Positions 53,068 to 62,056 of a stretch of 62,324 bases of DNA are shown piece after piece; the first letter of the stretch is position 1; each line of letters begins with the position of its first letter. The stretch comes from an uncultured Bacilli bacterium (GTDB lineage Bacteria > Bacillota_I > Bacilli_A > RF39 > UBA660). The stretch spans positions 73,502 to 135,825 of the forward strand of contig CANRDL010000001.1 in the NCBI GenBank assembly GCA_947629405.1, read 5' to 3'. The translations under genes were made by a program, and so were the position numbers. Below the pieces are notes generated by a model, which did not search any database, had not been told where the DNA came from, and worked only from the letters and a program-made list of their open reading frames with translations.

Positions 53068-53556
53068 ATGGATTATAAATTTATAGGTAAAATAGTATCA
53101 ACTCATGGAATTAAAGGTGAATTAAAAATTATAAGTAATCTTGAATATAAAGATAAATTATTTAAAGAAAATACTTACATTTATCTTGGTGATAATAAAG
53201 AAAAACATCAAATTAAAAGCTATCGAATACATAAAAATTACGATTTGATAACTTTAGATAATTTAAATAATATTAATGATGTATTAAAATATATTAATTT
53301 AAAAGTTTATAAAGATCGCAAGGATATTTTATTAAATGATGGTGAATTTTTTTATGATGATCTAATTGGCTATGATGTTATATTTAATAATAATAAAATT
53401 GGAAAAATAGTGGATTATGATAATAATACTCCTAATTTATTATATAAAATTGCTGGTGATAAAAATTTTTATATTCCTATTAATGGACCATTTATTAAAA
53501 ATATAAATAATAAAAATAAAGAAATAATAGTAGAAGATATTGGAGGTTTATTATGA
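53068..53556 (+). CDS. rimM: 16S rRNA processing protein RimM
   Basis: IGKIVSTHGIKGELKI at the N-terminus and a PRC barrel C-terminus. It sits before trmD. Confidence 0.9.
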   Translation: MDYKFIGKIVSTHGIKGELKIISNLEYKDKLFKENTYIYLGDNKEKHQIKSYRIHKNYDLITLDNLNNINDVLKYINLKVYKDRKDILLNDGEFFYDDLIGYDVIFNNNKIGKIVDYDNNTPNLLYKIAGDKNFYIPINGPFIKNINNKNKEIIVEDIGGLL

Positions 53557-54215
53557 AAATTGATATTCTTTCTTTATTTCCCAATATGTTTACTGGTTTT
53601 TTAAATGAATCTATTATTAAAAGAGCAATAGAGAAAAAGAAAGTAGAAATAAATATTATAGATTTTCGAACATATTCTAAATTAAATAATAATCAAGTAG
53701 ATGATACCCCTTATGGTGGTGGGCCAGGAATGGTCTTAAGATGTGAACCAATATTTGATTGCATTGATGACATTAAAACAAAAGATTCTAAAATTATTTT
53801 ATTAACTCCTGATGGAAAAAAATATAATCAAAAAATGGCTGTAAATTTAAAAGATGAAAAACATTTAATTATTATTTGTGGCCACTATGAAGGTTTTGAT
53901 GAAAGAATAAGAACTTTAGCAGATATAGAAATAAGTATTGGAGATTATATTTTAACCGGTGGCGAAGTTCCCGCAATGACAATAACTGATAGCATTGTTA
54001 GACTATTAGATGAAGTAATAAATAAAGAAAGTATTTGTGATGAATCTTTTAATAATAATTTACTTGATTATCCAACATATACTAAACCAAGAAGTTATAG
54101 AGGATTAAATGTTCCAGAAGTATTACTTTCCGGAGATCATAAAAAAATAGCCGAATGGCGAAAAAATGAACAAATAAAAAGAACACAAGAAAAAAGACCA
54201 GATATAATAGAGTAG
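53553..54215 (+). CDS. trmD: tRNA (guanine37-N1)-methyltransferase
   Basis: MKIDILSLFPNMF, YGGGPGMVL, CGHYEGFDER and GGEVPAM motifs. Confidence 0.95.
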   Translation: MKIDILSLFPNMFTGFLNESIIKRAIEKKKVEINIIDFRTYSKLNNNQVDDTPYGGGPGMVLRCEPIFDCIDDIKTKDSKIILLTPDGKKYNQKMAVNLKDEKHLIIICGHYEGFDERIRTLADIEISIGDYILTGGEVPAMTITDSIVRLLDEVINKESICDESFNNNLLDYPTYTKPRSYRGLNVPEVLLSGDHKKIAEWRKNEQIKRTQEKRPDIIE

Positions 54216-54223
54216 GTGATATT

Positions 54224-54658
54224 ATGGCAAGTTTTTTAATAAAAAGGACTGTTAAAACCAGTAAAATTATTAAAGTAGTAAAAGTAAAAGATAACAGTTA
54301 TGAATTTAAACCTAAAACAGGTTCTGTAAAAAAATTAATAGTAACTGATCCTTTAATAATCCAAAAAATATTAGTAGTTAAATTTAGTAATGCGATAGAT
54401 AAACTTGCTAAAAAAATATACTATTTTATAAATATTGGCGAAACTGATGATACTGATAGTGGAATTTTACTTGGGGAAATTAATAGACTTAGGGGAATTT
54501 TACTTAATAAATATCAAAAATATTTAAATAAAATGCAAGAAGAATATTTTTTAGAACAGTTAAGAATGTTAGAATTACAGCTTAGAAGTAGTCAATTTAA
54601 TTTTAATTATCATGATGAATATATACAAGAAGAAAGAAGAAGTCGTGGAGGTAAATAA
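54224..54658 (+). CDS. hypothetical protein inserted between trmD and rplS
   Basis: 144-aa ORF with GGTGA upstream. No motif was recognised. Confidence 0.45.
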   Translation: MASFLIKRTVKTSKIIKVVKVKDNSYEFKPKTGSVKKLIVTDPLIIQKILVVKFSNAIDKLAKKIYYFINIGETDDTDSGILLGEINRLRGILLNKYQKYLNKMQEEYFLEQLRMLELQLRSSQFNFNYHDEYIQEERRSRGGK

Positions 54659-54787: not shown

Positions 54788-55132
54788 ATGGCTAATTTAG
54801 TAGATAAAATTAACCAAAAACAAATTAAACCAAATATTCCTGAGTTTAGAGTAGGCGACACAGTAAGAGTCGATGTATGGGTTAAAGAAGGAAAGAAAGA
54901 AAGAATCCAAGCTTTTGAAGGTGTAGTTGTTGCTAAAAAAGGTGGAAGTGTAACTGAAACTTTTACAGTACGTAAAAAAAGCTATGGAGTAGGAGTTCTT
55001 AGAATTTTTCCTGTTAATGCTCCAAGTATTGATAAGATTACTGTTGTTAGAAAAGGTAAAGTAAGACGTGTTAAACTTAAAGGTATATTAAAAGGAATGA
55101 AAAAAGAATTTAAAATTCCTGAAAGAAATTAA
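54788..55132 (+). CDS. rplS: 50S ribosomal protein L19
   Basis: [47 protein letters not shown]. Confidence 0.95.
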
Positions 55133-55173: not shown

Positions 55174-55659
55174 ATGAAAATATTAAAAGAAATAATTCCT
55201 TATGTAATAGTAGTTATAGTAGTTATACTAATTAGAACATTTTTAGTAACGCCAATTAGAGTAAATGGAAGTAGTATGTATCCAACCTTAAAAGATAAAG
55301 AAATAATGATTTTAAATAAAATTGGTAAAACTGTAAATGGCATAGACCGTTTTGATATAGTTGTATTAAAAGAAGATGATTATTTAATTAAAAGAGTTAT
55401 TGCGCTTCCTGGAGAAAAAATATCTTGTCAAAATGGAAATATTTATATTAATGGCAAAAAATTAAAAGATAAATATGGTTCAGGATTAACTTCTGATTTT
55501 GAACCAATAGAAGTACCTAAAAATTCTTATTTTGTAATGGGTGATAATAGAGAAAATTCTAAAGATTCAAGATATATTGGGCCTATTAATAAAAATGAAA
55601 TTAAAGGGAAAACTTCATTTATTTTATTTCCATTTAAAAATTTTGGAAAAGTTGATTAA
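55174..55659 (+). CDS. lepB: signal peptidase I
   Basis: VNGSSMYPTL (catalytic Ser), KRVIALPGE (Lys), and GDNRENSKDSR. Confidence 0.9.
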   Translation: MKILKEIIPYVIVVIVVILIRTFLVTPIRVNGSSMYPTLKDKEIMILNKIGKTVNGIDRFDIVVLKEDDYLIKRVIALPGEKISCQNGNIYINGKKLKDKYGSGLTSDFEPIEVPKNSYFVMGDNRENSKDSRYIGPINKNEIKGKTSFILFPFKNFGKVD

Positions 55660-55683: not shown

Positions 55684-55806
55684 ATGAAAAATGTATTAGT
55701 AACAGGTGGATGTGGAGGCATTGGCTCTGCAATTGTTGATGAACTTATAAAAAATGGATATAACCCAATTGTAACTGACATAAATAAAGAAAATATAAAA
55801 AAATAA
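55684..55806 (+). pseudogene. 40-codon remnant of a short-chain dehydrogenase/reductase N-terminus
   Basis: It translates to MKNVLVTGGCGGIGSAIVDELIKNGYNPIVTDINKENIKK then stops. The TGGxGGIGxAI Rossmann motif is present, but the catalytic part is missing. Confidence 0.6.
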
Positions 55807-55879
55807 AAGAAAAATATATTAAAAACTAGCAAAATTTATATCAAAATGAAACTTTAAATATATAAAATTAACAAACAAA

Positions 55880-55967: not shown

Positions 55968-56159
55968 ATGACACAAAAAGAATTAGATTATGTTGAAGAT
56001 GCTATTAAGCATGAAAAAAATTTAGCATCAATAATTACTGAATCAATTGAAGTGTTAGAAGATGAAAAAATTGTATCATTTATGCAAAAACAACTAGATG
56101 ATCATAAATCATTACATAAAAAATTAATGAATTTATTGGAGGAAAAGAAAAATGAATGA
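55968..56159 (+). CDS. small helical protein co-transcribed with the CotF-like gene
   Basis: 63 aa with an AGGAGGA ribosome-binding site. It overlaps the next start. Confidence 0.55.
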   Translation: MTQKELDYVEDAIKHEKNLASIITESIEVLEDEKIVSFMQKQLDDHKSLHKKLMNLLEEKKNE

Positions 56160-56400
56160 TAAATTAATTATGGAAAATTATTTATTACTTTTAAAAAGTA
56201 CTGTAGAAGTATTTGTTCATGGAACTTTAGAAAGCTCTAATCCCGATGTAAGAAAATTATTAAAAAAAGGATTAGATATGATTATGCAAGCGCAAGCAGA
56301 TACATATGATACAATGACTAATAATGGTTGGTATACTATAAACAATGTCCAACTTGATTCTATAAATCAAACAATTCAGAATATTCAAAGTGAAAATTAA
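56152..56400 (+). CDS. spore coat protein F (Coat_F) family protein
   Basis: ENYLLLLKSTVEVFVHGTLESSNPDVRKLLKKGL...NNGWY resembles the Coat_F signature. Confidence 0.7.
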   Translation: MNDKLIMENYLLLLKSTVEVFVHGTLESSNPDVRKLLKKGLDMIMQAQADTYDTMTNNGWYTINNVQLDSINQTIQNIQSEN

Positions 56401-56448: not shown

Positions 56449-56476
56449 TTGACAAATTATCATAATATGTTAATAT
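56449..56476 (+). promoter_or_regulatory. candidate promoter TTGACA-16-TAATAT for the giant repeat gene
   Basis: TTGACA is at 56449-56454 and TAATAT at 56471-56476. Confidence 0.45.
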
Positions 56477-56560: not shown

Positions 56561-59500
56561 ATGAAATTAGATACTATTTATACTTATTTTAGTGATTATT
56601 CAGAAGAAAATGTAAATAAAATGTTATCATTTCTAACTGATAAAGAAATGGAGTTAATTAAAATTAGGTTTGGAAATAACTTAAAGGAGCAATTAGATAG
56701 TCAAAACGTTCCTAAAAAAGTTAATACTTCGAAATTTTATAATGAATTTTATAAATCACTAGTTCCAAAAATGAGAAATATTCTTAAAGAACTTACTAAA
56801 AATAATAATTTTTCTGAAGAAAAAATTAACGCTGCTATTAAATTATATTATAAAATTCATAAAAATTTATTTGTTTCTGATGATTTAGTTTATAATAGAG
56901 TGAAAATTGGTAAATATCTTCTTTCTAAAAAAAAGGAATATCATAATAAGACTATAGATATTGAATCATTTATTTTTCTTGACTCTTTAAATATGATATG
57001 GGATATAAATAAATTTAATTTAATAAATAGCTTAAAGTATCTAACAAATATAAAATCAGAATTATTATCTACTTTAAATAAAATTGTAAATAATTATGAT
57101 GAAAGTTCTATTGCCCATTTATTAGTTTTTCTTTATAAAAATAAACTAAATAATTATACCTTTTTAAATTGTTTATACGATGCCTCAGTAATATGTCCAA
57201 TTTTGAACAAAAAATTAACTGATGAGGAATACAAAATTTCAATTTTATATTTTAATAATATTGATTTAAATATTATTTTAAACGCATTTAATATTACCAA
57301 AGAAGAATTTAATAATATTAGAAAAAAATCATTAGATATTATTGTAAATAATTCTAGGTTATTAAAAATTAATTTAATTAATAAATCTTTGAAAAATATT
57401 AAACCAATATCAATTGAAAAAACAAAAGATCAAAATTTAAAGATAGATAATTTTAAACCAATTAATAAAAAAGTTACTAAATCTGTCCAACCTGAAAAAA
57501 TAGAAAATAAAAATTTAAATTTAGGTAATACTCCACAAATTAATCATAATGTAAAATCAAGTAAAAAATCTGGTCCAAAATTAAAGAGTATATATGAGCG
57601 ACTATCAGAATATCCACGTGAAAAAGTTGATGAAGTATTAGATAAATTATCCCAGTACGATAAAGAACTACTTAAAATTAACTATGGTGAAGATTTAGAG
57701 CATCCGAAAAGAAATTCAAATTGTAGTAAATATCAAAAAAATAAACTAAATAATATTCTTATACCCAAAATGAAAGATGCTTTAGAAAATCCTGAAAATA
57801 TTGATAGTATTTTAGCTCAAAAAAGTGGGACAAAATTAAAAAGTATATATGAGCGACTATCAGAATATCCTCGAGAAAAAGTTGATGAAGTATTAGATAA
57901 ATTATCTTCGAAAGATAAAGAATTAATTAAAATGAGCTATGGTGAGGATTTAGATAATCCTAAAAGGAATCCAAATTTTAGTCAATATCAAAGAAATAAG
58001 TTAAATATTATTCTTATACCCAAAATGAAAGATGCTTTAGAAAATCCCGAAAATATTGAAAATATATTTGCTAAAAAATCTGGTCCAAAATTAAAAAGTA
58101 TATATGAACGACTATCAGAATATCCTCGAGAAAAAGTTGATGAAGTATTAGATAAATTACCTTCAGAAGATGAAGAATTAATTAAAATGAGCTATGGTGA
58201 AGATTTAGATAATCCTAAAAGAAGTAAAGAGTTTAATGCTTTATACTCGACTAAATTAAATAATATTCTTATACCCAAAATGAAAGAGGCTTTAGAAAAT
58301 CCGGAAAATATCGATAATATATTTGCTCGAAAAAAACGTAATAAAAAATTAAAAAGTATATATGAACGATTTTCAGAATATTCACGTGAACAAGTTGATG
58401 AAGTATTAGACAAGTTACCTCAAAAAGACGAAGAATTAATTAAAATGGGCTATGGTGAAGATTTAGATCATCCGAAAAGAGATCCTAATTTTAGTCAATA
58501 TCAAAAAAATAAACTAAATAATATTCTTATACCCAAAATGAGAGAGGCTTTAGAAAATCCTAAAAATATTGAAAATACATTTGCTAAAAAAGGTGGTCTA
58601 AAATTAAAAAGTATATATGAACGACTATCAGAATATCCTCGAGAAAAAGTTGATGAAGTATTAGATAAATTACCTTCAGAAGATAAAGAATTAATTAAAA
58701 TTTGTTATGGTGAAGATTTAGATCATCCTAAAAGAGGGGAAAAATTTAATCATTGTAATAAAAATAAATTAAATAATATTCTTATACCCAAAATGAGAGA
58801 AGCTTTAGAAAATCCCGAAAATATTGATAATATATTTGTTCGAAGAAAAAGTGGACCAAAATTAAAAAGTATATATGAACGATTTTCAGAATATTCACGT
58901 GAACAAGTTGATGAAGTATTAGATAAGTTATCTCCAAAAGACGAAGAATTAATTAAAATATGCTATGGTGAAGATTTAGATCATCCTAAAAGAAGTAAAA
59001 AATTTGAAAATTTTCATTCATACAGAATAAATAATATTCTTATTCCAAAAATAAAAGAGGCTTTAGAAAATCCTGAAAATATTGATAATATATTTACTCA
59101 AGAAAGTTATGAAAAACTAAAAAGTATATATGAACGACTATCAGAATATTCACGTGAACAAGTTGATGAAGTATTAGATAAATTACCTTCATATGATAAA
59201 GAATTAATTAAGTTATGTTATGGTGAGGATTTAGATCACCCTAAAAGAGATCTGAGTTTTAAACGATATCATAAAAATAAACTAAATAATACTCTAATAC
59301 CAAAAATGAAAGAAGCTTTAGAAAATCCGGAAAAAATTGATAATATATTGACTAAAAAAGGTGGTCCAAAGTTAAAAAATATATATGAACGATTATCAAA
59401 ATATCCTAGAGAAAAAGTTGATGAAGTATTAGACAAGTTACCTCCAAAAGACAAGAAAATAATTAAGATGTGTTATGGTGAAGATTTAGAGCATCCGAAA

Positions 59501-61207
59501 AGAGATCCGAATTTTAGTATATATCATAAAAATAAACTAAATAGTACTATTATACCTCAAATGAGAGAAGCATTAGAAAACCCTGAAAATATTGATAATA
59601 TATTTGCTCAAAAAAATGGTTCAAAACTAAAAAGTATATATGAACGACTATCAGAATATCCACGTGAACAAATTGATGAAGTACTAGATAAGTTACCTCC
59701 AAAAGACGAAGAATTAATTAAAATATGTTATGGCGAAGATTTAGATCATCCTAAAAGAAGTAAAGAGTTTAAAGTCAATCATTCAAGTAAACTAAATAGA
59801 ATTCTTATACCTCAAATGAAAGAAGCTTTAGAAAATCCTAAAAATATCGATAATATATTTGCTCAAAAAAGTGGGACAAAATTAAAAAGTATATATGAGC
59901 GACTTTCAGAATATCCACGTGAGAAAGTTGATGAAGTATTAGACAAGTTATCTTCAAATGATAAAAAATTAATTAAGTTATGTTATGGTGAAGATTTAGA
60001 TCATCCTAAAAGAAGTGAAAATTTTGTTATTTCTAATTCAGTTAATTTAAATATATCAATTTTACCAAAGATAAGAAAAGCTTTAGAAGATCCTAAAAAT
60101 ATTGATAATATATTAGCTCCAAAAAAATGTGGACCAAAATTAAAAAGTATATATGAACGATTTTCAGAATATTCACGTGAACAAATTGATGAAGTATTAG
60201 ACAAGTTACCTCCAAAAGACGAAGAATTAATTAAAATTTGTTATGGTGAAGATTTAGAGCATCCTAAAAGAAATCCAAGTTTTAGTCGTTATCATAAAAC
60301 TAAACTAAACAATAATCTTATACCTCAAATGAAAGAAGCTTTAGAAAACCCTGAAAATATTGATAATATATTTGCTCAAAAAAGTGGGACAAAATTAAAA
60401 AGTATATATGAACGGTTATCCAAATATCCACGTGAACAAATTGATGAAGTACTAGATAAGTTACCTCCAAAAGACGAAGAATTAATTAAAATATGTTATG
60501 GCGAAGATTTAGATAATCCCAAAAGAAGTAAAGAATTTGAAAAAATTCATTCATACAGAATAAATAATATTCTTTTACCAAAGCTGAGAAAAATTTTAGA
60601 AGATCCTGAAAATATTGATAGCATATTAACAAAAAAATGTGGTCCAAAATTAAAAAGTATATATGAACGACTATCAGAATATCCTCGAGAAAAAGTTGAT
60701 GAAGTATTAGACAAGTTACCTCCAAAAGACAAGGAAATAATTAAAATATGTTATGGTGAGGATTTAGATCACCCTAAAAGAGATCCAAGTTTTAGTTTAT
60801 ATCATAAAAATAAACTAAATAATATTCTTATACCAAAAATTAAAAAAAATTTAGAAAATAAAAATAAAATAAATTATGAATACAAATTATCTCCAAATTC
60901 AACAGATACTAAATTAAAAAATATCATAATAGAAAATGATTTGAAATTAAACAATTTTGGAATATTATTAACCGGTGAATTAAATAACGATGAATTATTA
61001 ATAGCGTTATTAAAATTTGGGGTTAATATTTCTATAAAAGACATAGCTAATTATTTAAATATTAAGGAAATGGATGTAAAAAAAATCATTAAAAAAGTTT
61101 TAATAATATATAAAAAGAATATTAATCAATATATAGATAATATTGTTAAGGATATTGAAAATAATAAAGAACCTTTTGATGAAAGTAATATACATTTATT
61201 AAAATAA
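56561..61207 (+). CDS. 1548-aa repeat protein: a diverged N-terminal unit, a helical region with an HTH-like segment, 13 tandem 85-86-aa sigma-70-region-4-like modules, and a C-terminal region-4-like HTH
   Basis: A single uninterrupted ORF with a GAGGGA ribosome-binding site. No signal peptide or TM helix is present. The unit consensus is KLKSIYERLSEYPREKVDEVLDKLPPKDEELIKICYGEDLDHPKR-x10-LNNILIPKMKEALENPENIDNIFAQKSG. The C-terminal ISIKDIANYLNIKEMDVKKIIKKVL is HTH-like. Confidence 0.8.
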   Translation: MKLDTIYTYFSDYSEENVNKMLSFLTDKEMELIKIRFGNNLKEQLDSQNVPKKVNTSKFYNEFYKSLVPKMRNILKELTKNNNFSEEKINAAIKLYYKIHKNLFVSDDLVYNRVKIGKYLLSKKKEYHNKTIDIESFIFLDSLNMIWDINKFNLINSLKYLTNIKSELLSTLNKIVNNYDESSIAHLLVFLYKNKLNNYTFLNCLYDASVICPILNKKLTDEEYKISILYFNNIDLNIILNAFNITKEEFNNIRKKSLDIIVNNSRLLKINLINKSLKNIKPISIEKTKDQNLKIDNFKPINKKVTKSVQPEKIENKNLNLGNTPQINHNVKSSKKSGPKLKSIYERLSEYPREKVDEVLDKLSQYDKELLKINYGEDLEHPKRNSNCSKYQKNKLNNILIPKMKDALENPENIDSILAQKSGTKLKSIYERLSEYPREKVDEVLDKLSSKDKELIKMSYGEDLDNPKRNPNFSQYQRNKLNIILIPKMKDALENPENIENIFAKKSGPKLKSIYERLSEYPREKVDEVLDKLPSEDEELIKMSYGEDLDNPKRSKEFNALYSTKLNNILIPKMKEALENPENIDNIFARKKRNKKLKSIYERFSEYSREQVDEVLDKLPQKDEELIKMGYGEDLDHPKRDPNFSQYQKNKLNNILIPKMREALENPKNIENTFAKKGGLKLKSIYERLSEYPREKVDEVLDKLPSEDKELIKICYGEDLDHPKRGEKFNHCNKNKLNNILIPKMREALENPENIDNIFVRRKSGPKLKSIYERFSEYSREQVDEVLDKLSPKDEELIKICYGEDLDHPKRSKKFENFHSYRINNILIPKIKEALENPENIDNIFTQESYEKLKSIYERLSEYSREQVDEVLDKLPSYDKELIKLCYGEDLDHPKRDLSFKRYHKNKLNNTLIPKMKEALENPEKIDNILTKKGGPKLKNIYERLSKYPREKVDEVLDKLPPKDKKIIKMCYGEDLEHPKRDPNFSIYHKNKLNSTIIPQMREALENPENIDNIFAQKNGSKLKSIYERLSEYPREQIDEVLDKLPPKDEELIKICYGEDLDHPKRSKEFKVNHSSKLNRILIPQMKEALENPKNIDNIFAQKSGTKLKSIYERLSEYPREKVDEVLDKLSSNDKKLIKLCYGEDLDHPKRSENFVISNSVNLNISILPKIRKALEDPKNIDNILAPKKCGPKLKSIYERFSEYSREQIDEVLDKLPPKDEELIKICYGEDLEHPKRNPSFSRYHKTKLNNNLIPQMKEALENPENIDNIFAQKSGTKLKSIYERLSKYPREQIDEVLDKLPPKDEELIKICYGEDLDNPKRSKEFEKIHSYRINNILLPKLRKILEDPENIDSILTKKCGPKLKSIYERLSEYPREKVDEVLDKLPPKDKEIIKICYGEDLDHPKRDPSFSLYHKNKLNNILIPKIKKNLENKNKINYEYKLSPNSTDTKLKNIIIENDLKLNNFGILLTGELNNDELLIALLKFGVNISIKDIANYLNIKEMDVKKIIKKVLIIYKKNINQYIDNIVKDIENNKEPFDESNIHLLK
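57569..60893 (+). repeat. 13 in-frame tandem repeats with a period of 255 nt (three units of 258 nt)
   Basis: Unit starts were read at 57569, 57824, 58079 ... 58592 ... 60638. The span from the first to the last start is 3069 nt, which equals 9x255 + 3x258. Confidence 0.9.
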
Positions 61208-61233
61208 TATTACCCTATTTTAAATTTATATAA

Positions 61234-61256
61234 AGCAGGAATAAAATCCTGCTTTT
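61234..61256 (+). terminator. intrinsic terminator after the giant repeat gene
   Basis: AGCAGGA-ATAAAA-TCCTGCT followed by TTT. Confidence 0.7.
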
Positions 61257-61333: not shown

Positions 61334-62056
61334 ATGAAAGATAAGATAAATAAATTTAAAGAATGGATAGAAGAAAGTGATAATATTGTCTTTTTTGGTG
61401 GGGCAGGCGTATCTACTGAAAGTGGTATTCCTGATTTTAGAAGTAAGGATGGTTTATATAATCAGCATTATAAATATCCACCAGAAGTAATACTTAGTCA
61501 TACATTTTTTATAAATAATACTGAGGAATTTTATTGTTTCTATAAATCTAAACTAAATAGTTTAAAATATAATCCTAATATTACTCATATTAAATTAGTA
61601 GAACTTGAAAAAAAAGGAAAACTACAAGCGATAGTAACTCAAAATATAGATGGGCTTCATCAAAAAGCAGAATCTAAAAAAGTTTTGGAATTACACGGAA
61701 GTATTTACAGAAATTATTGTATGAATTGCAAAAAATTTTATGATGCTAAATATGTATTTAAAAGTAAAGGTATTCCTAAATGTTCATGTGGAGGAATTAT
61801 CAAACCAGATGTAGTACTTTATGAAGAAGGGCTAGATGAAACAACTATAGAAAATGCCATTAGAGTAATTCAAAATGCCGACATGTTGATTATTGCGGGA
61901 ACTTCTTTAACTGTATATCCGGCAAGTAGTTTGATAAATTATTTCAAAGGCAAAAAATTAGTTTTAATTAATAAAGACAGTACTCCTTATGATAATAAAG
62001 CAGATTTAGTAATAAATGATAGTTTAGGAAAAGTTTTTTCTAAAATACAATTTTAA
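61334..62056 (+). CDS. cobB: NAD-dependent protein deacylase (Sir2 family)
   Basis: GAGVSTESGIPDFRS, QNIDGLH, the zinc ribbon CMNCKK...CSCGG, and GTSLTVYPA. Confidence 0.9.
   Translation: MKDKINKFKEWIEESDNIVFFGGAGVSTESGIPDFRSKDGLYNQHYKYPPEVILSHTFFINNTEEFYCFYKSKLNSLKYNPNITHIKLVELEKKGKLQAIVTQNIDGLHQKAESKKVLELHGSIYRNYCMNCKKFYDAKYVFKSKGIPKCSCGGIIKPDVVLYEEGLDETTIENAIRVIQNADMLIIAGTSLTVYPASSLINYFKGKKLVLINKDSTPYDNKADLVINDSLGKVFSKIQF

Follow-up and report, generated by a model that had tools for sequence, protein, structure and literature searches.

What use does a bacterium have for thirteen copies of one domain in a single protein chain, and what is the meaning of the short segment in which these copies differ? 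This question is raised by an open reading frame (ORF) of 1548 amino acids, referred to below as the array ORF, in a stretch of 62,324 nucleotides (nt) from an uncultured Bacilli bacterium (GenBank assembly GCA_947629405.1, contig CANRDL010000001.1). Throughout, "the stretch" denotes the whole of this DNA and "patch window" denotes positions 46-55 of each repeat unit. The array is almost certainly a set of tandem domains descended from region 4 of the sigma-70 factors. The best overall explanation of the locus, a sigma region 4-derived array in which the patch window serves as a ligand-contact surface, is one that we hold with evenly balanced confidence. The array ORF has the following parts.

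56561-61207, plus strand: the array ORF, 1548 amino acids, taken from the ORF list.
56564-56800, plus strand: a degenerate fourteenth unit ("unit 0", residues 2-80), which aligns with the units and has a 5-residue insertion in the variable region.
56813-57430, plus strand: N-terminal region, residues 85-290, with a weak sigma-4-like helix-turn-helix (HTH) at about residues 218-258.
57578-60901, plus strand: 13 tandem units of 85-86 amino acids (255-258 nt) with the anchor KLK.IYER.
60902-61204, plus strand: C-terminal domain with a sigma region 4-like HTH at about nt 60980-61102.

Read from its N-terminus, the protein consists of unit 0, an N-terminal helical region, a low-complexity linker, the 13 units, and the C-terminal sigma-4-like HTH domain. 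Unit 0 is supported by a match of the unit hidden Markov model to residues 3-94 and by a BLASTP match to the units of a distant relative, P0003 (E = 5e-10). Tandem Repeats Finder places the array at 57564-60859 with a period of 255, 12.9 copies, and 81% matches. The nucleotide identity between pairs of units is 72-89%, in agreement with the high similarity reported in the initial annotation of this DNA, which had also listed a variable decapeptide for each of the 13 units and sorted the decapeptides into two recurring classes. All 13 were recovered exactly as listed and the two classes are real. The D-type, [DN]P[NS]FS.Y[QH]K[NT], comprises units 2, 4, 8, 11, and 13 and, in variant form, units 1 and 7; the S-type, SK[EK]F....[HS][SY], comprises units 3, 6, 9, and 12 with unit 10 as a variant; and unit 5 is intermediate.

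Unit 1, plus strand, starting at 57578: patch window 57713-57742, NSNCSKYQKN, D-type variant.
Unit 2, plus strand, starting at 57833: patch window 57968-57997, NPNFSQYQRN, D-type.
Unit 3, plus strand, starting at 58088: patch window 58223-58252, SKEFNALYST, S-type.
Unit 4, plus strand, starting at 58346: patch window 58481-58510, DPNFSQYQKN, D-type.
Unit 5, plus strand, starting at 58601: patch window 58736-58765, GEKFNHCNKN, intermediate.
Unit 6, plus strand, starting at 58859: patch window 58994-59023, SKKFENFHSY, S-type.
Unit 7, plus strand, starting at 59114: patch window 59249-59278, DLSFKRYHKN, D-type variant.
Unit 8, plus strand, starting at 59369: patch window 59504-59533, DPNFSIYHKN, D-type.
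Unit 9, plus strand, starting at 59624: patch window 59759-59788, SKEFKVNHSS, S-type.
Unit 10, plus strand, starting at 59879: patch window 60014-60043, SENFVISNSV, S-type variant.
Unit 11, plus strand, starting at 60137: patch window 60272-60301, NPSFSRYHKT, D-type.
Unit 12, plus strand, starting at 60392: patch window 60527-60556, SKEFEKIHSY, S-type.
Unit 13, plus strand, starting at 60647: patch window 60782-60811, DPSFSLYHKN, D-type.

The descent of the units from region 4 is carried by profile comparisons. Every unit is matched by the Pfam models Sigma70_r4 and Sigma70_r4_2, with the match restricted to profile positions 1-29 (the first 22-29); summed across the units of the whole protein, the E values are 8.1e-29 and 1.9e-35, respectively. 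Both the Pfam and the NCBIfam matches of the units stop before the HTH. When the unit profile was compared with the sequences of the Protein Data Bank (PDB), region 4 of SigA/RpoD was matched with E = 0.006 over the segment kEqledvLdtLtdrEenvLrLRFG, and FliA was also matched over unit positions 13-70. An hhalign comparison of the unit family with region 4 of the family's own sigma factors gave a probability of 82% and E = 1e-6. Region 4.1 is retained in each unit together with the opening helix of region 4.2 (...L..K[DE].ELIK..YGEDL...), and over this part the unit shares the pattern L..[RK][ED]..hh.h[RK][YF]G with sigma-70 region 4 (PF04545, PF08281). The long helix of the unit is likewise collinear with the recognition helix, with the hydrophobic register and the K/R-rich C-terminal half kept. 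The unit differs from region 4 in that its first HTH helix is 6 residues shorter, with a proline-containing loop instead, in that it adds an N-terminal I-Y-E-x-F-x-x-Y motif and a fifth helix, and in that it occurs 2-19 times in tandem and not once. Unlike the sigma factors, the array protein is without regions 2 and 3; neither Sigma70_r2 nor Sigma70_r3 was found in it with Pfam, and it has no similarity to the sigma core of P0003.

The two HTH segments outside the array are also sigma-4-like. The C-terminal domain matches Pfam Sigma70_r4 with E = 0.01 over profile positions 5-45 of 50 and NCBIfam sigma-70 models with E values of 0.001-0.006, and nothing beyond such weak region 4 matches was found for it in Pfam, NCBIfam, and PHROGs. 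This domain is common to P0003 and other relatives, with phmmer matches in 36 of 153 family proteins. Residues 218-258 match region 4 of the P0003 sigma factor with a BLASTP E value of 0.029; the surrounding region (residues 85-290) has no match in Pfam, NCBIfam, or PHROGs and has been seen in two near-identical strains only. Against NF045770, the model of the MG284/MPN403 C-terminus, the whole protein scores 42.6 bits (cut-off 37.3) as a sum over 13 partial matches; the match spans only profile positions 3-26 of 57, and a single unit gives E = 0.15 or nothing. The likeness lies in the helix LS..[DE]K..I.L.YG, and in both cases the organisms are of the low-GC Bacilli/Mollicutes type. A literature search on MG284/MPN403 found no paper on the function of that family.

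The arrays P0118, P0132, P0079, P0044, and P0108 contain units in which the N-terminal motif of the family is followed by a canonical HTH (...RYGLNNHPITKTKSIAQQFNITSGTMSQRITRIKKQIKK), and in one of these units the match to the NCBIfam sigma70-ECF model (E = 1.3e-10) extends as far as the final model position. These HTH-bearing units stand beside short ones and, as judged from their sequences, are apparent intermediates between region 4 and the remodelled unit. They were aligned (alignment A5) with the short units, the units of the array, P0003 region 4, and region 4 of E. coli sigma-70. In this alignment the short units are without six residues of the first HTH helix when compared with the HTH-bearing units, P0003, and E. 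coli. F49 of the unit is paired with V582 of E. coli, the hydrophobic turn residue, and residue 50 with the helix cap T583; positions 51, 52, 53, and 55 are paired with R584, E585, R586, and R588, the E. coli counterparts of the TRERxR residues in P0003 region 4. Five hydrophobic anchors are in register (unit positions 49, 57, 61, 62, and 65 against E. coli 582, 590, 594, 595, and 598). The alignment therefore identifies the patch window as a remnant of the HTH turn together with the DNA-reading start of the recognition-helix homologue. The sigma-70 residues R584, E585, and R588 have been implicated in the reading of the -35 element (PMC2613000). A global hhalign alignment pairs the start of the long helix with HTH helix 1 and has no confidence in that half; it was rejected, and alignment A5 was preferred because it is bridged by the HTH-bearing units and P0003 region 4 and has the five anchors in register.

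It had been proposed in the initial annotation that near-constant flanks enclose a localised variable patch, and entropy and dN/dS were named as the measures that should decide this. Most scaffold columns have an entropy of 0-1 bit, whereas unit positions 46-48 and 50-55 reach 1.3-3.1 bits; F49, which lies inside the patch window, is invariant in 12 of the 13 units. The numbers of nonsynonymous (dN) and synonymous (dS) substitutions per site were estimated by the Nei-Gojobori method for all pairs of units, with bootstrap 95% intervals in parentheses.

Patch window, positions 46-55: dN/dS 1.44 (0.94-2.61), dS 0.44.
Scaffold: dN/dS 0.24 (0.16-0.36), dS 0.44.
Linker, positions 80-85: dN/dS 2.65 (1.41-6.19), dS 0.28.
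Within the D-type: patch-window dN/dS 0.78, dS 0.29; scaffold dS 0.48.
Within the S-type: patch-window dN/dS 0.25-0.54, dS 0.84-1.4; scaffold dS 0.35-0.39.
Between the classes: patch-window dN/dS 2.15, dS 0.54; scaffold dS 0.44.

Both measures are raised in the patch window when compared with the scaffold, and positions 46-55 have the highest dN among all 76 possible 10-codon windows. Within each class the patch window is under purifying selection and is not a drifting loop. Its composition is also biased: the 65 residues at positions 51-55 of the array protein include no aspartate or glutamate and are rich in Tyr, His, Gln, Asn, Lys, and Ser. Elsewhere in the unit, position 35 shows a gradient from the 5' to the 3' end of the array, irrespective of the patch-window class: units 1-4 have N, S, S, and G there, respectively, and units 5-13 all have Cys.

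The structure of one unit was modelled with AlphaFold2 from an alignment of 97 unit sequences. The model has a predicted local distance difference test score (pLDDT) of 86.7 and a predicted template modelling score (pTM) of 0.70, with helices at positions 5-8, 14-23, 26-36, 51-70, and 72-80 and an ordered loop at positions 37-50. The patch window consists of loop residues 46-48, the presumably buried anchor F49, the cap at position 50, and the first five residues of the long helix (51-55, the first 1.5 turns). Its pLDDT is 87-90, and the segment is predicted to be ordered, not disordered. From helical periodicity and the homology with sigma region 4, we infer that positions 51, 52, and 55 (1.9-3.1 bits) are exposed and that positions 53 and 54, where variability is lowest among the helical residues of the patch (1.7 and 1.3 bits), lie nearer the core. 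A model of three consecutive units has a pLDDT of 92.9 and a pTM of 0.53, with dips at the linkers (10-residue block means of 77-78). As modelled, the units are best described as well-folded beads on short variable linkers and not as a solenoid.

The scaffold of the array is homogenised by gene conversion, and the patch windows escape this process and are kept as two old types. The distances between units in the scaffold and in the patch window are uncorrelated (Mantel r = -0.11), and units of different class can be closest relatives, as are units 9 and 11 (88% identical). In the S-type the patch-window dS exceeds the scaffold dS, which indicates that the S-type windows are older than the scaffolds that carry them. 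A word-indexed protein search with the full protein found two near-identical strains in addition to the distant relative P0003, and the same search with the unit profile found one fragment. The protein of the first strain (P0001) is 98% identical and that of the second (P0002) is 84% identical over the aligned part. When the array protein was compared with P0001, 0 of 130 patch-window residues and 30 of 975 residues elsewhere had changed; nearly all of these changes are switches to states present in other units, and 13 of them fall in one unit. At the DNA level, the comparison with the P0002 strain gave 0 changes in 270 patch-window nucleotides and 58 in 2025 elsewhere, and these cluster in tracts on both sides of the patch windows of units 9 and 13. 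Point divergence is about 0.6% in unconverted units versus 2.1% in the flank.

The number of units is 13 in two of the three strains and nine in the third. The nine units of the P0002 strain correspond to units 1, 2, 3 (with the tail of 5), 6, 7, 8, 9, 12, and 13 of the array. When the class order was compared between these strains, as had been suggested in the initial annotation, the remaining units were found in unchanged order, and this indicates that the number of units changes by in-register deletion. Additionally, the P0002 strain has an extra A in an A-run after about codon 71 (at about position 56773 of the stretch; L002:4359-4700), which splits the gene into an ORF of 75 amino acids (P0004) and one of 1093 amino acids. 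This split may be a real frameshift, homopolymer phase variation, or an assembly error. The N-terminus of P0001 is different again.

The array belongs to a large family. In P0003, a complete sigma factor (regions 1.2, 2, 3, and 4) precedes eight units and the C-terminal HTH domain that is also present in the array protein. An exhaustive search with the unit profile (cut-off E up to 0.001) matched 1239 cluster representatives, 759 of them with E up to 1e-10. Among the best 150 family members the arrays have 2-19 units with a median of 5, and 52 of these proteins contain a full sigma core (confirmed with Pfam), with the array C-terminal of the core in 48 and N-terminal of it in 4. Public databases list such proteins, which come from metagenome-assembled genomes (MAGs) of Bacilli, only as "sigma-70 family RNA polymerase sigma factor" or "hypothetical protein". 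In a genome scan, 40 loci were found, almost all of them in MAGs of uncultured Bacilli, Tenericutes, Mycoplasmatota, and Erysipelotrichaceae from rabbit, ruminant, mouse, and human guts, and some MAGs have two loci. No model of the unit was found in Pfam, NCBIfam, or PHROGs, and literature searches on sigma factors with C-terminal repeats and on such arrays in these lineages returned nothing relevant. The family is undescribed and belongs to uncultured low-GC gut Bacilli. A search for dnaG upstream of the sigma-array fusions, as a check for primary sigma factors, did not find it; genes encoding UvrC, DUF2207, and tRNA synthetase were found there instead.

Several side observations were made in the genome scan. 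The units of the array read CYGEDL and not RYGEDL as in the query of the scan. Two of the loci (L007 and L026) are in MAGs labelled Methanobrevibacter and Muribaculaceae, labels that most likely reflect binning errors and not true hosts. In one locus (L015:4143-5684) the units are found on a short sigma factor with regions 2 and 4 only, which means that the array module has been joined to sigma factors of more than one class.

The concentration of variability is a property of the family as well. In 37 of 39 other arrays, variability is higher in profile columns 45-54 than in the remainder of the unit (median ratio 1.37); P0010 and P0016, the two younger arrays, reach a ratio of about 2.1. The 10-column stretch with the highest variability starts at columns 37-56 in all 39 arrays and never in the N-terminal part. 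The mean charge of the family units is -2.6 in columns 1-44 and +3.1 in columns 45-66.

Unequal recombination changes the number of units, and gene conversion keeps their scaffolds alike. How might such an array work? In our proposal, the patch window would make the binding preferences of adjacent units differ while the fold stays constant, with every unit as a separate reading head on a flexible string. The ligand might be double-stranded DNA near promoters, to which the array would add multivalent contacts with graded specificity. In the sigma-fused relatives these contacts would extend promoter recognition, and in the stand-alone array protein the units may act together with the protein's own two HTH segments. 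The parts of this proposal are not equally firm. We lean towards the patch window being a functional contact patch and not a free loop. DNA as the ligand is put forward tentatively and we think it rather less likely than not to be correct; it is favoured because the domain originates from sigma region 4, the long helix is basic, two HTH segments of the sigma-4 type are present in the same chain, and relatives are fused to sigma factors. The most elaborate form of the proposal is a long shot: the array would be a programmable multi-head DNA reader in which each unit prefers a different short DNA step through the diversified start of its recognition-helix homologue, the sigma-fused arrays would extend recognition far upstream of -35, and the stand-alone protein would be a sigma-independent DNA-binding derivative. 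We know of no studied bacterium in which promoters are selected far upstream of -35 by heads of this kind.

A number of observations weigh against this proposal. DNA is kept at low weight as a ligand because the HTH is lost, because whole units are near neutral (net charge -5 to +5), and because acidic residues are found in other arrays, where the long helix of most units starts with L-T-K-E-E and is acidic where sigma has R-E-R. Such a start does not look like a DNA-reading surface, and the array protein departs from the family norm in having no acidic residue at positions 51-55. The AlphaFold2 model of one unit contains no helix-turn-helix, and a Foldseek search with this model against the PDB gave nothing significant, the best match being SigA region 4 with E = 2.8 and TM scores of 0.29-0.39. 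No binding partner or target comes from any of the results. Since the number of units varies and the copy in one strain is frameshifted, the full array is not strictly required. The comparison of strains was considered as proof of selection on the patch window and was rejected, as the strains have diverged too little and the conversion events number no more than two or three; for the same reasons the zero patch-window changes between strains are weak evidence. Sequence divergence alone may also keep conversion tracts out of the patch windows.

The remaining points on this side bear on the rival that survives best, which we judge unlikely, although it has to be taken seriously. According to this explanation the patch window is the least constrained surface segment of the unit, the classes are a frozen record of duplication, for instance of a block with one D-type and one S-type unit, and have no separate function, and conversion erases the differences elsewhere. 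The patch-window dN/dS is not significantly above 1, and the six linker residues (80-85), which were missed in the initial annotation, are at least as variable as the patch window. Since the patch-window interval includes 1 and the linker dN/dS is higher, relaxed constraint can explain part of the signal. In the family as a whole many exposed scaffold positions are as variable as the patch window, and the mechanical exclusion of conversion tracts from windows that are too different would fit here as well. Read along the array, the classes run D D S / D G S / D D S / S D S / D, which is suggestive of growth by blocks of three units. A three-unit super-repeat was considered on this ground and rejected; the periodicity is barely visible, with an identity of 82.5% at lag 3 against 80.7% at lag 1 and 82.1% at lag 2. 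Against a free loop stand the purifying selection within the classes (dN/dS 0.25-0.78 at dS up to 1.4), the high confidence with which the segment is predicted to be ordered, and the bias in composition at positions 51-55. If the patch were nevertheless an unconstrained loop, the finding would shrink to a new domain family without an assigned role.

The second rival, which is less probable still, holds that the units are protein-binding mimics of region 4 that engage the beta-flap tip of RNA polymerase, anti-sigma factors, or activators, with the patch selecting the partner and the array acting in transcription control as a scaffold or decoy and not as a reader of DNA. Conservation in the unit is highest over region 4.1 and the first helix of 4.2, where sigma factors have their binding surfaces for the beta-flap and for proteins such as AsiA. 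The loss of the HTH, the acidic N-terminal half of the units, and the fusion of arrays to sigma factors in 52 of 150 relatives are in keeping with such a role. However, the conserved residues are mostly those of the hydrophobic core and do not themselves support surface mimicry, and a single chain would seem to have little use for 13 to 19 copies that bind the flap. No partner gene is conserved beside the arrays, whose neighbours vary (UvrC, DUF2207, tRNA synthetase).

The idea that the array is a solenoid of the TALE or PUF kind, with the patches along one face and one base or short step read per unit, is very improbable. It goes back to the initial annotation, in which the units were described as modular recognition repeats with the logic of TALE, PUF, or ankyrin proteins. 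This description is supported in part: the patch is localised, ordered, and more variable than the scaffold, it aligns with the start of the recognition helix, and the idea of a constant framework with a localised specificity patch survives; a solenoid architecture and a multi-letter code are not supported. TALE, PUF, and ankyrin proteins resemble the array in their tandem repeats, their constant framework, and the variation of residues at fixed positions (the last is seen likewise in 37 of the 39 other arrays), and recurring window types are also what a solenoid reader would show. These proteins are continuous solenoids of 33-36-residue helical hairpins with a rigid interface between repeats, whereas the units here are autonomous five-helix domains of 85 residues whose relative orientation is not confidently predicted (three-unit pTM of 0.53). 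Model confidence is lower in the linkers, which also differ in sequence and length from unit to unit. The windows fall into no more than two main types, and strains with 13 and with 9 units coexist. Fold searches with the one-unit model against viral structures and with the three-unit model against the PDB gave nothing significant, and neither model has a structural match to a solenoid.

An array of separate heads in the manner of C2H2 zinc fingers is a closer analogy than TALE or PUF proteins; it is an analogy only, and DNA binding by the array is hypothetical. Both are tandem arrays of small autonomous domains with short linkers and a near-constant scaffold, in both the variation between paralogous units is concentrated at the start of one helix, and in both the number of units varies by unequal recombination. 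The two are not homologous, and no metal ligands are conserved in the sigma-4-derived family. The units have 85 residues and not 28, and the linkers are variable and not conserved.

Hypermutation or phase variation of the patch, as in the target of a diversity-generating retroelement or a cassette for antigenic variation, is hardly credible: the localised amino-acid diversity in a repeated gene would suit it, but the diversity lies between paralogous units and not between alleles, the protein, a homologue of cytoplasmic sigma factors, lacks a signal peptide and an anchor, and the patch windows are identical in nucleotide sequence across three strains while the rest of the gene differs, which rules out ongoing hypermutation.

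Region 4 is among the best-studied of bacterial DNA-binding domains, and to our knowledge it has been known as a single copy at the end of the sigma factor. What is new here is that region 4 has been remodelled, with loss of the first HTH helix, and multiplied to 2-19 copies, often on the sigma factor itself. If these arrays bind DNA or RNA polymerase, transcription initiation or its regulation in the organisms that carry them would be unlike that of model bacteria. The array is also a clear case of concerted evolution in which the framework is homogenised and the patch is spared.

The array ORF is flanked by candidate signals for transcription, which were found by consensus scans, and by the following genes.

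53553-54215: trmD, upstream of the array ORF.
54224-54658: ORF of 144 amino acids between trmD and rplS, with no Pfam match.
54788-55132: rplS.
55174-55659: gene for a type I signal peptidase.
55968-56400: two overlapping ORFs immediately before the array gene, one of 63 amino acids and one of 82 amino acids, the latter with a Coat_F domain (E = 2e-14).
56449-56476, plus strand: promoter-like site (TTGACA, 16 nt, TG-extended TAATAT) with 10 of 12 consensus matches, a result that in itself is not evidence of function.
61232-61255, plus strand: terminator-like hairpin of 9 pairs followed by a T-rich tail, 25 nt past the stop codon.
61334-62056: SIR2-family gene of 240 amino acids, downstream of the array gene.

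The array ORF, with its promoter-like site and terminator-like hairpin, is probably transcribed alone. Inspection of the protein sequence found no signal peptide-like N-terminus or anchor, and the array protein is predicted to be cytoplasmic. The stretch is very AT-rich, with a GC content of 18-29% per 2 kb, and looks like ordinary chromosomal DNA. The Coat_F ORF hints at a spore-forming ancestry of the organism, which has a GC content of about 23%. A second SIR2-family gene (L001:14211-14933) is found about 2.6 kb downstream of the gene for P0003, and the presence of a SIR2 gene near both arrays may reflect a loose conservation of the neighbourhood. Past the signal peptidase gene, the intergenic DNA at 55780-55825 contains an A-rich 23-nt tandem duplication. 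In the P0002 strain, short-chain dehydrogenase and ABC transporter genes (L002:1088-3665) lie between the signal peptidase gene and the Coat_F pair; these two genes are absent from the stretch (site at about 55818-55821), and the difference is a 2.4-kb insertion or deletion.

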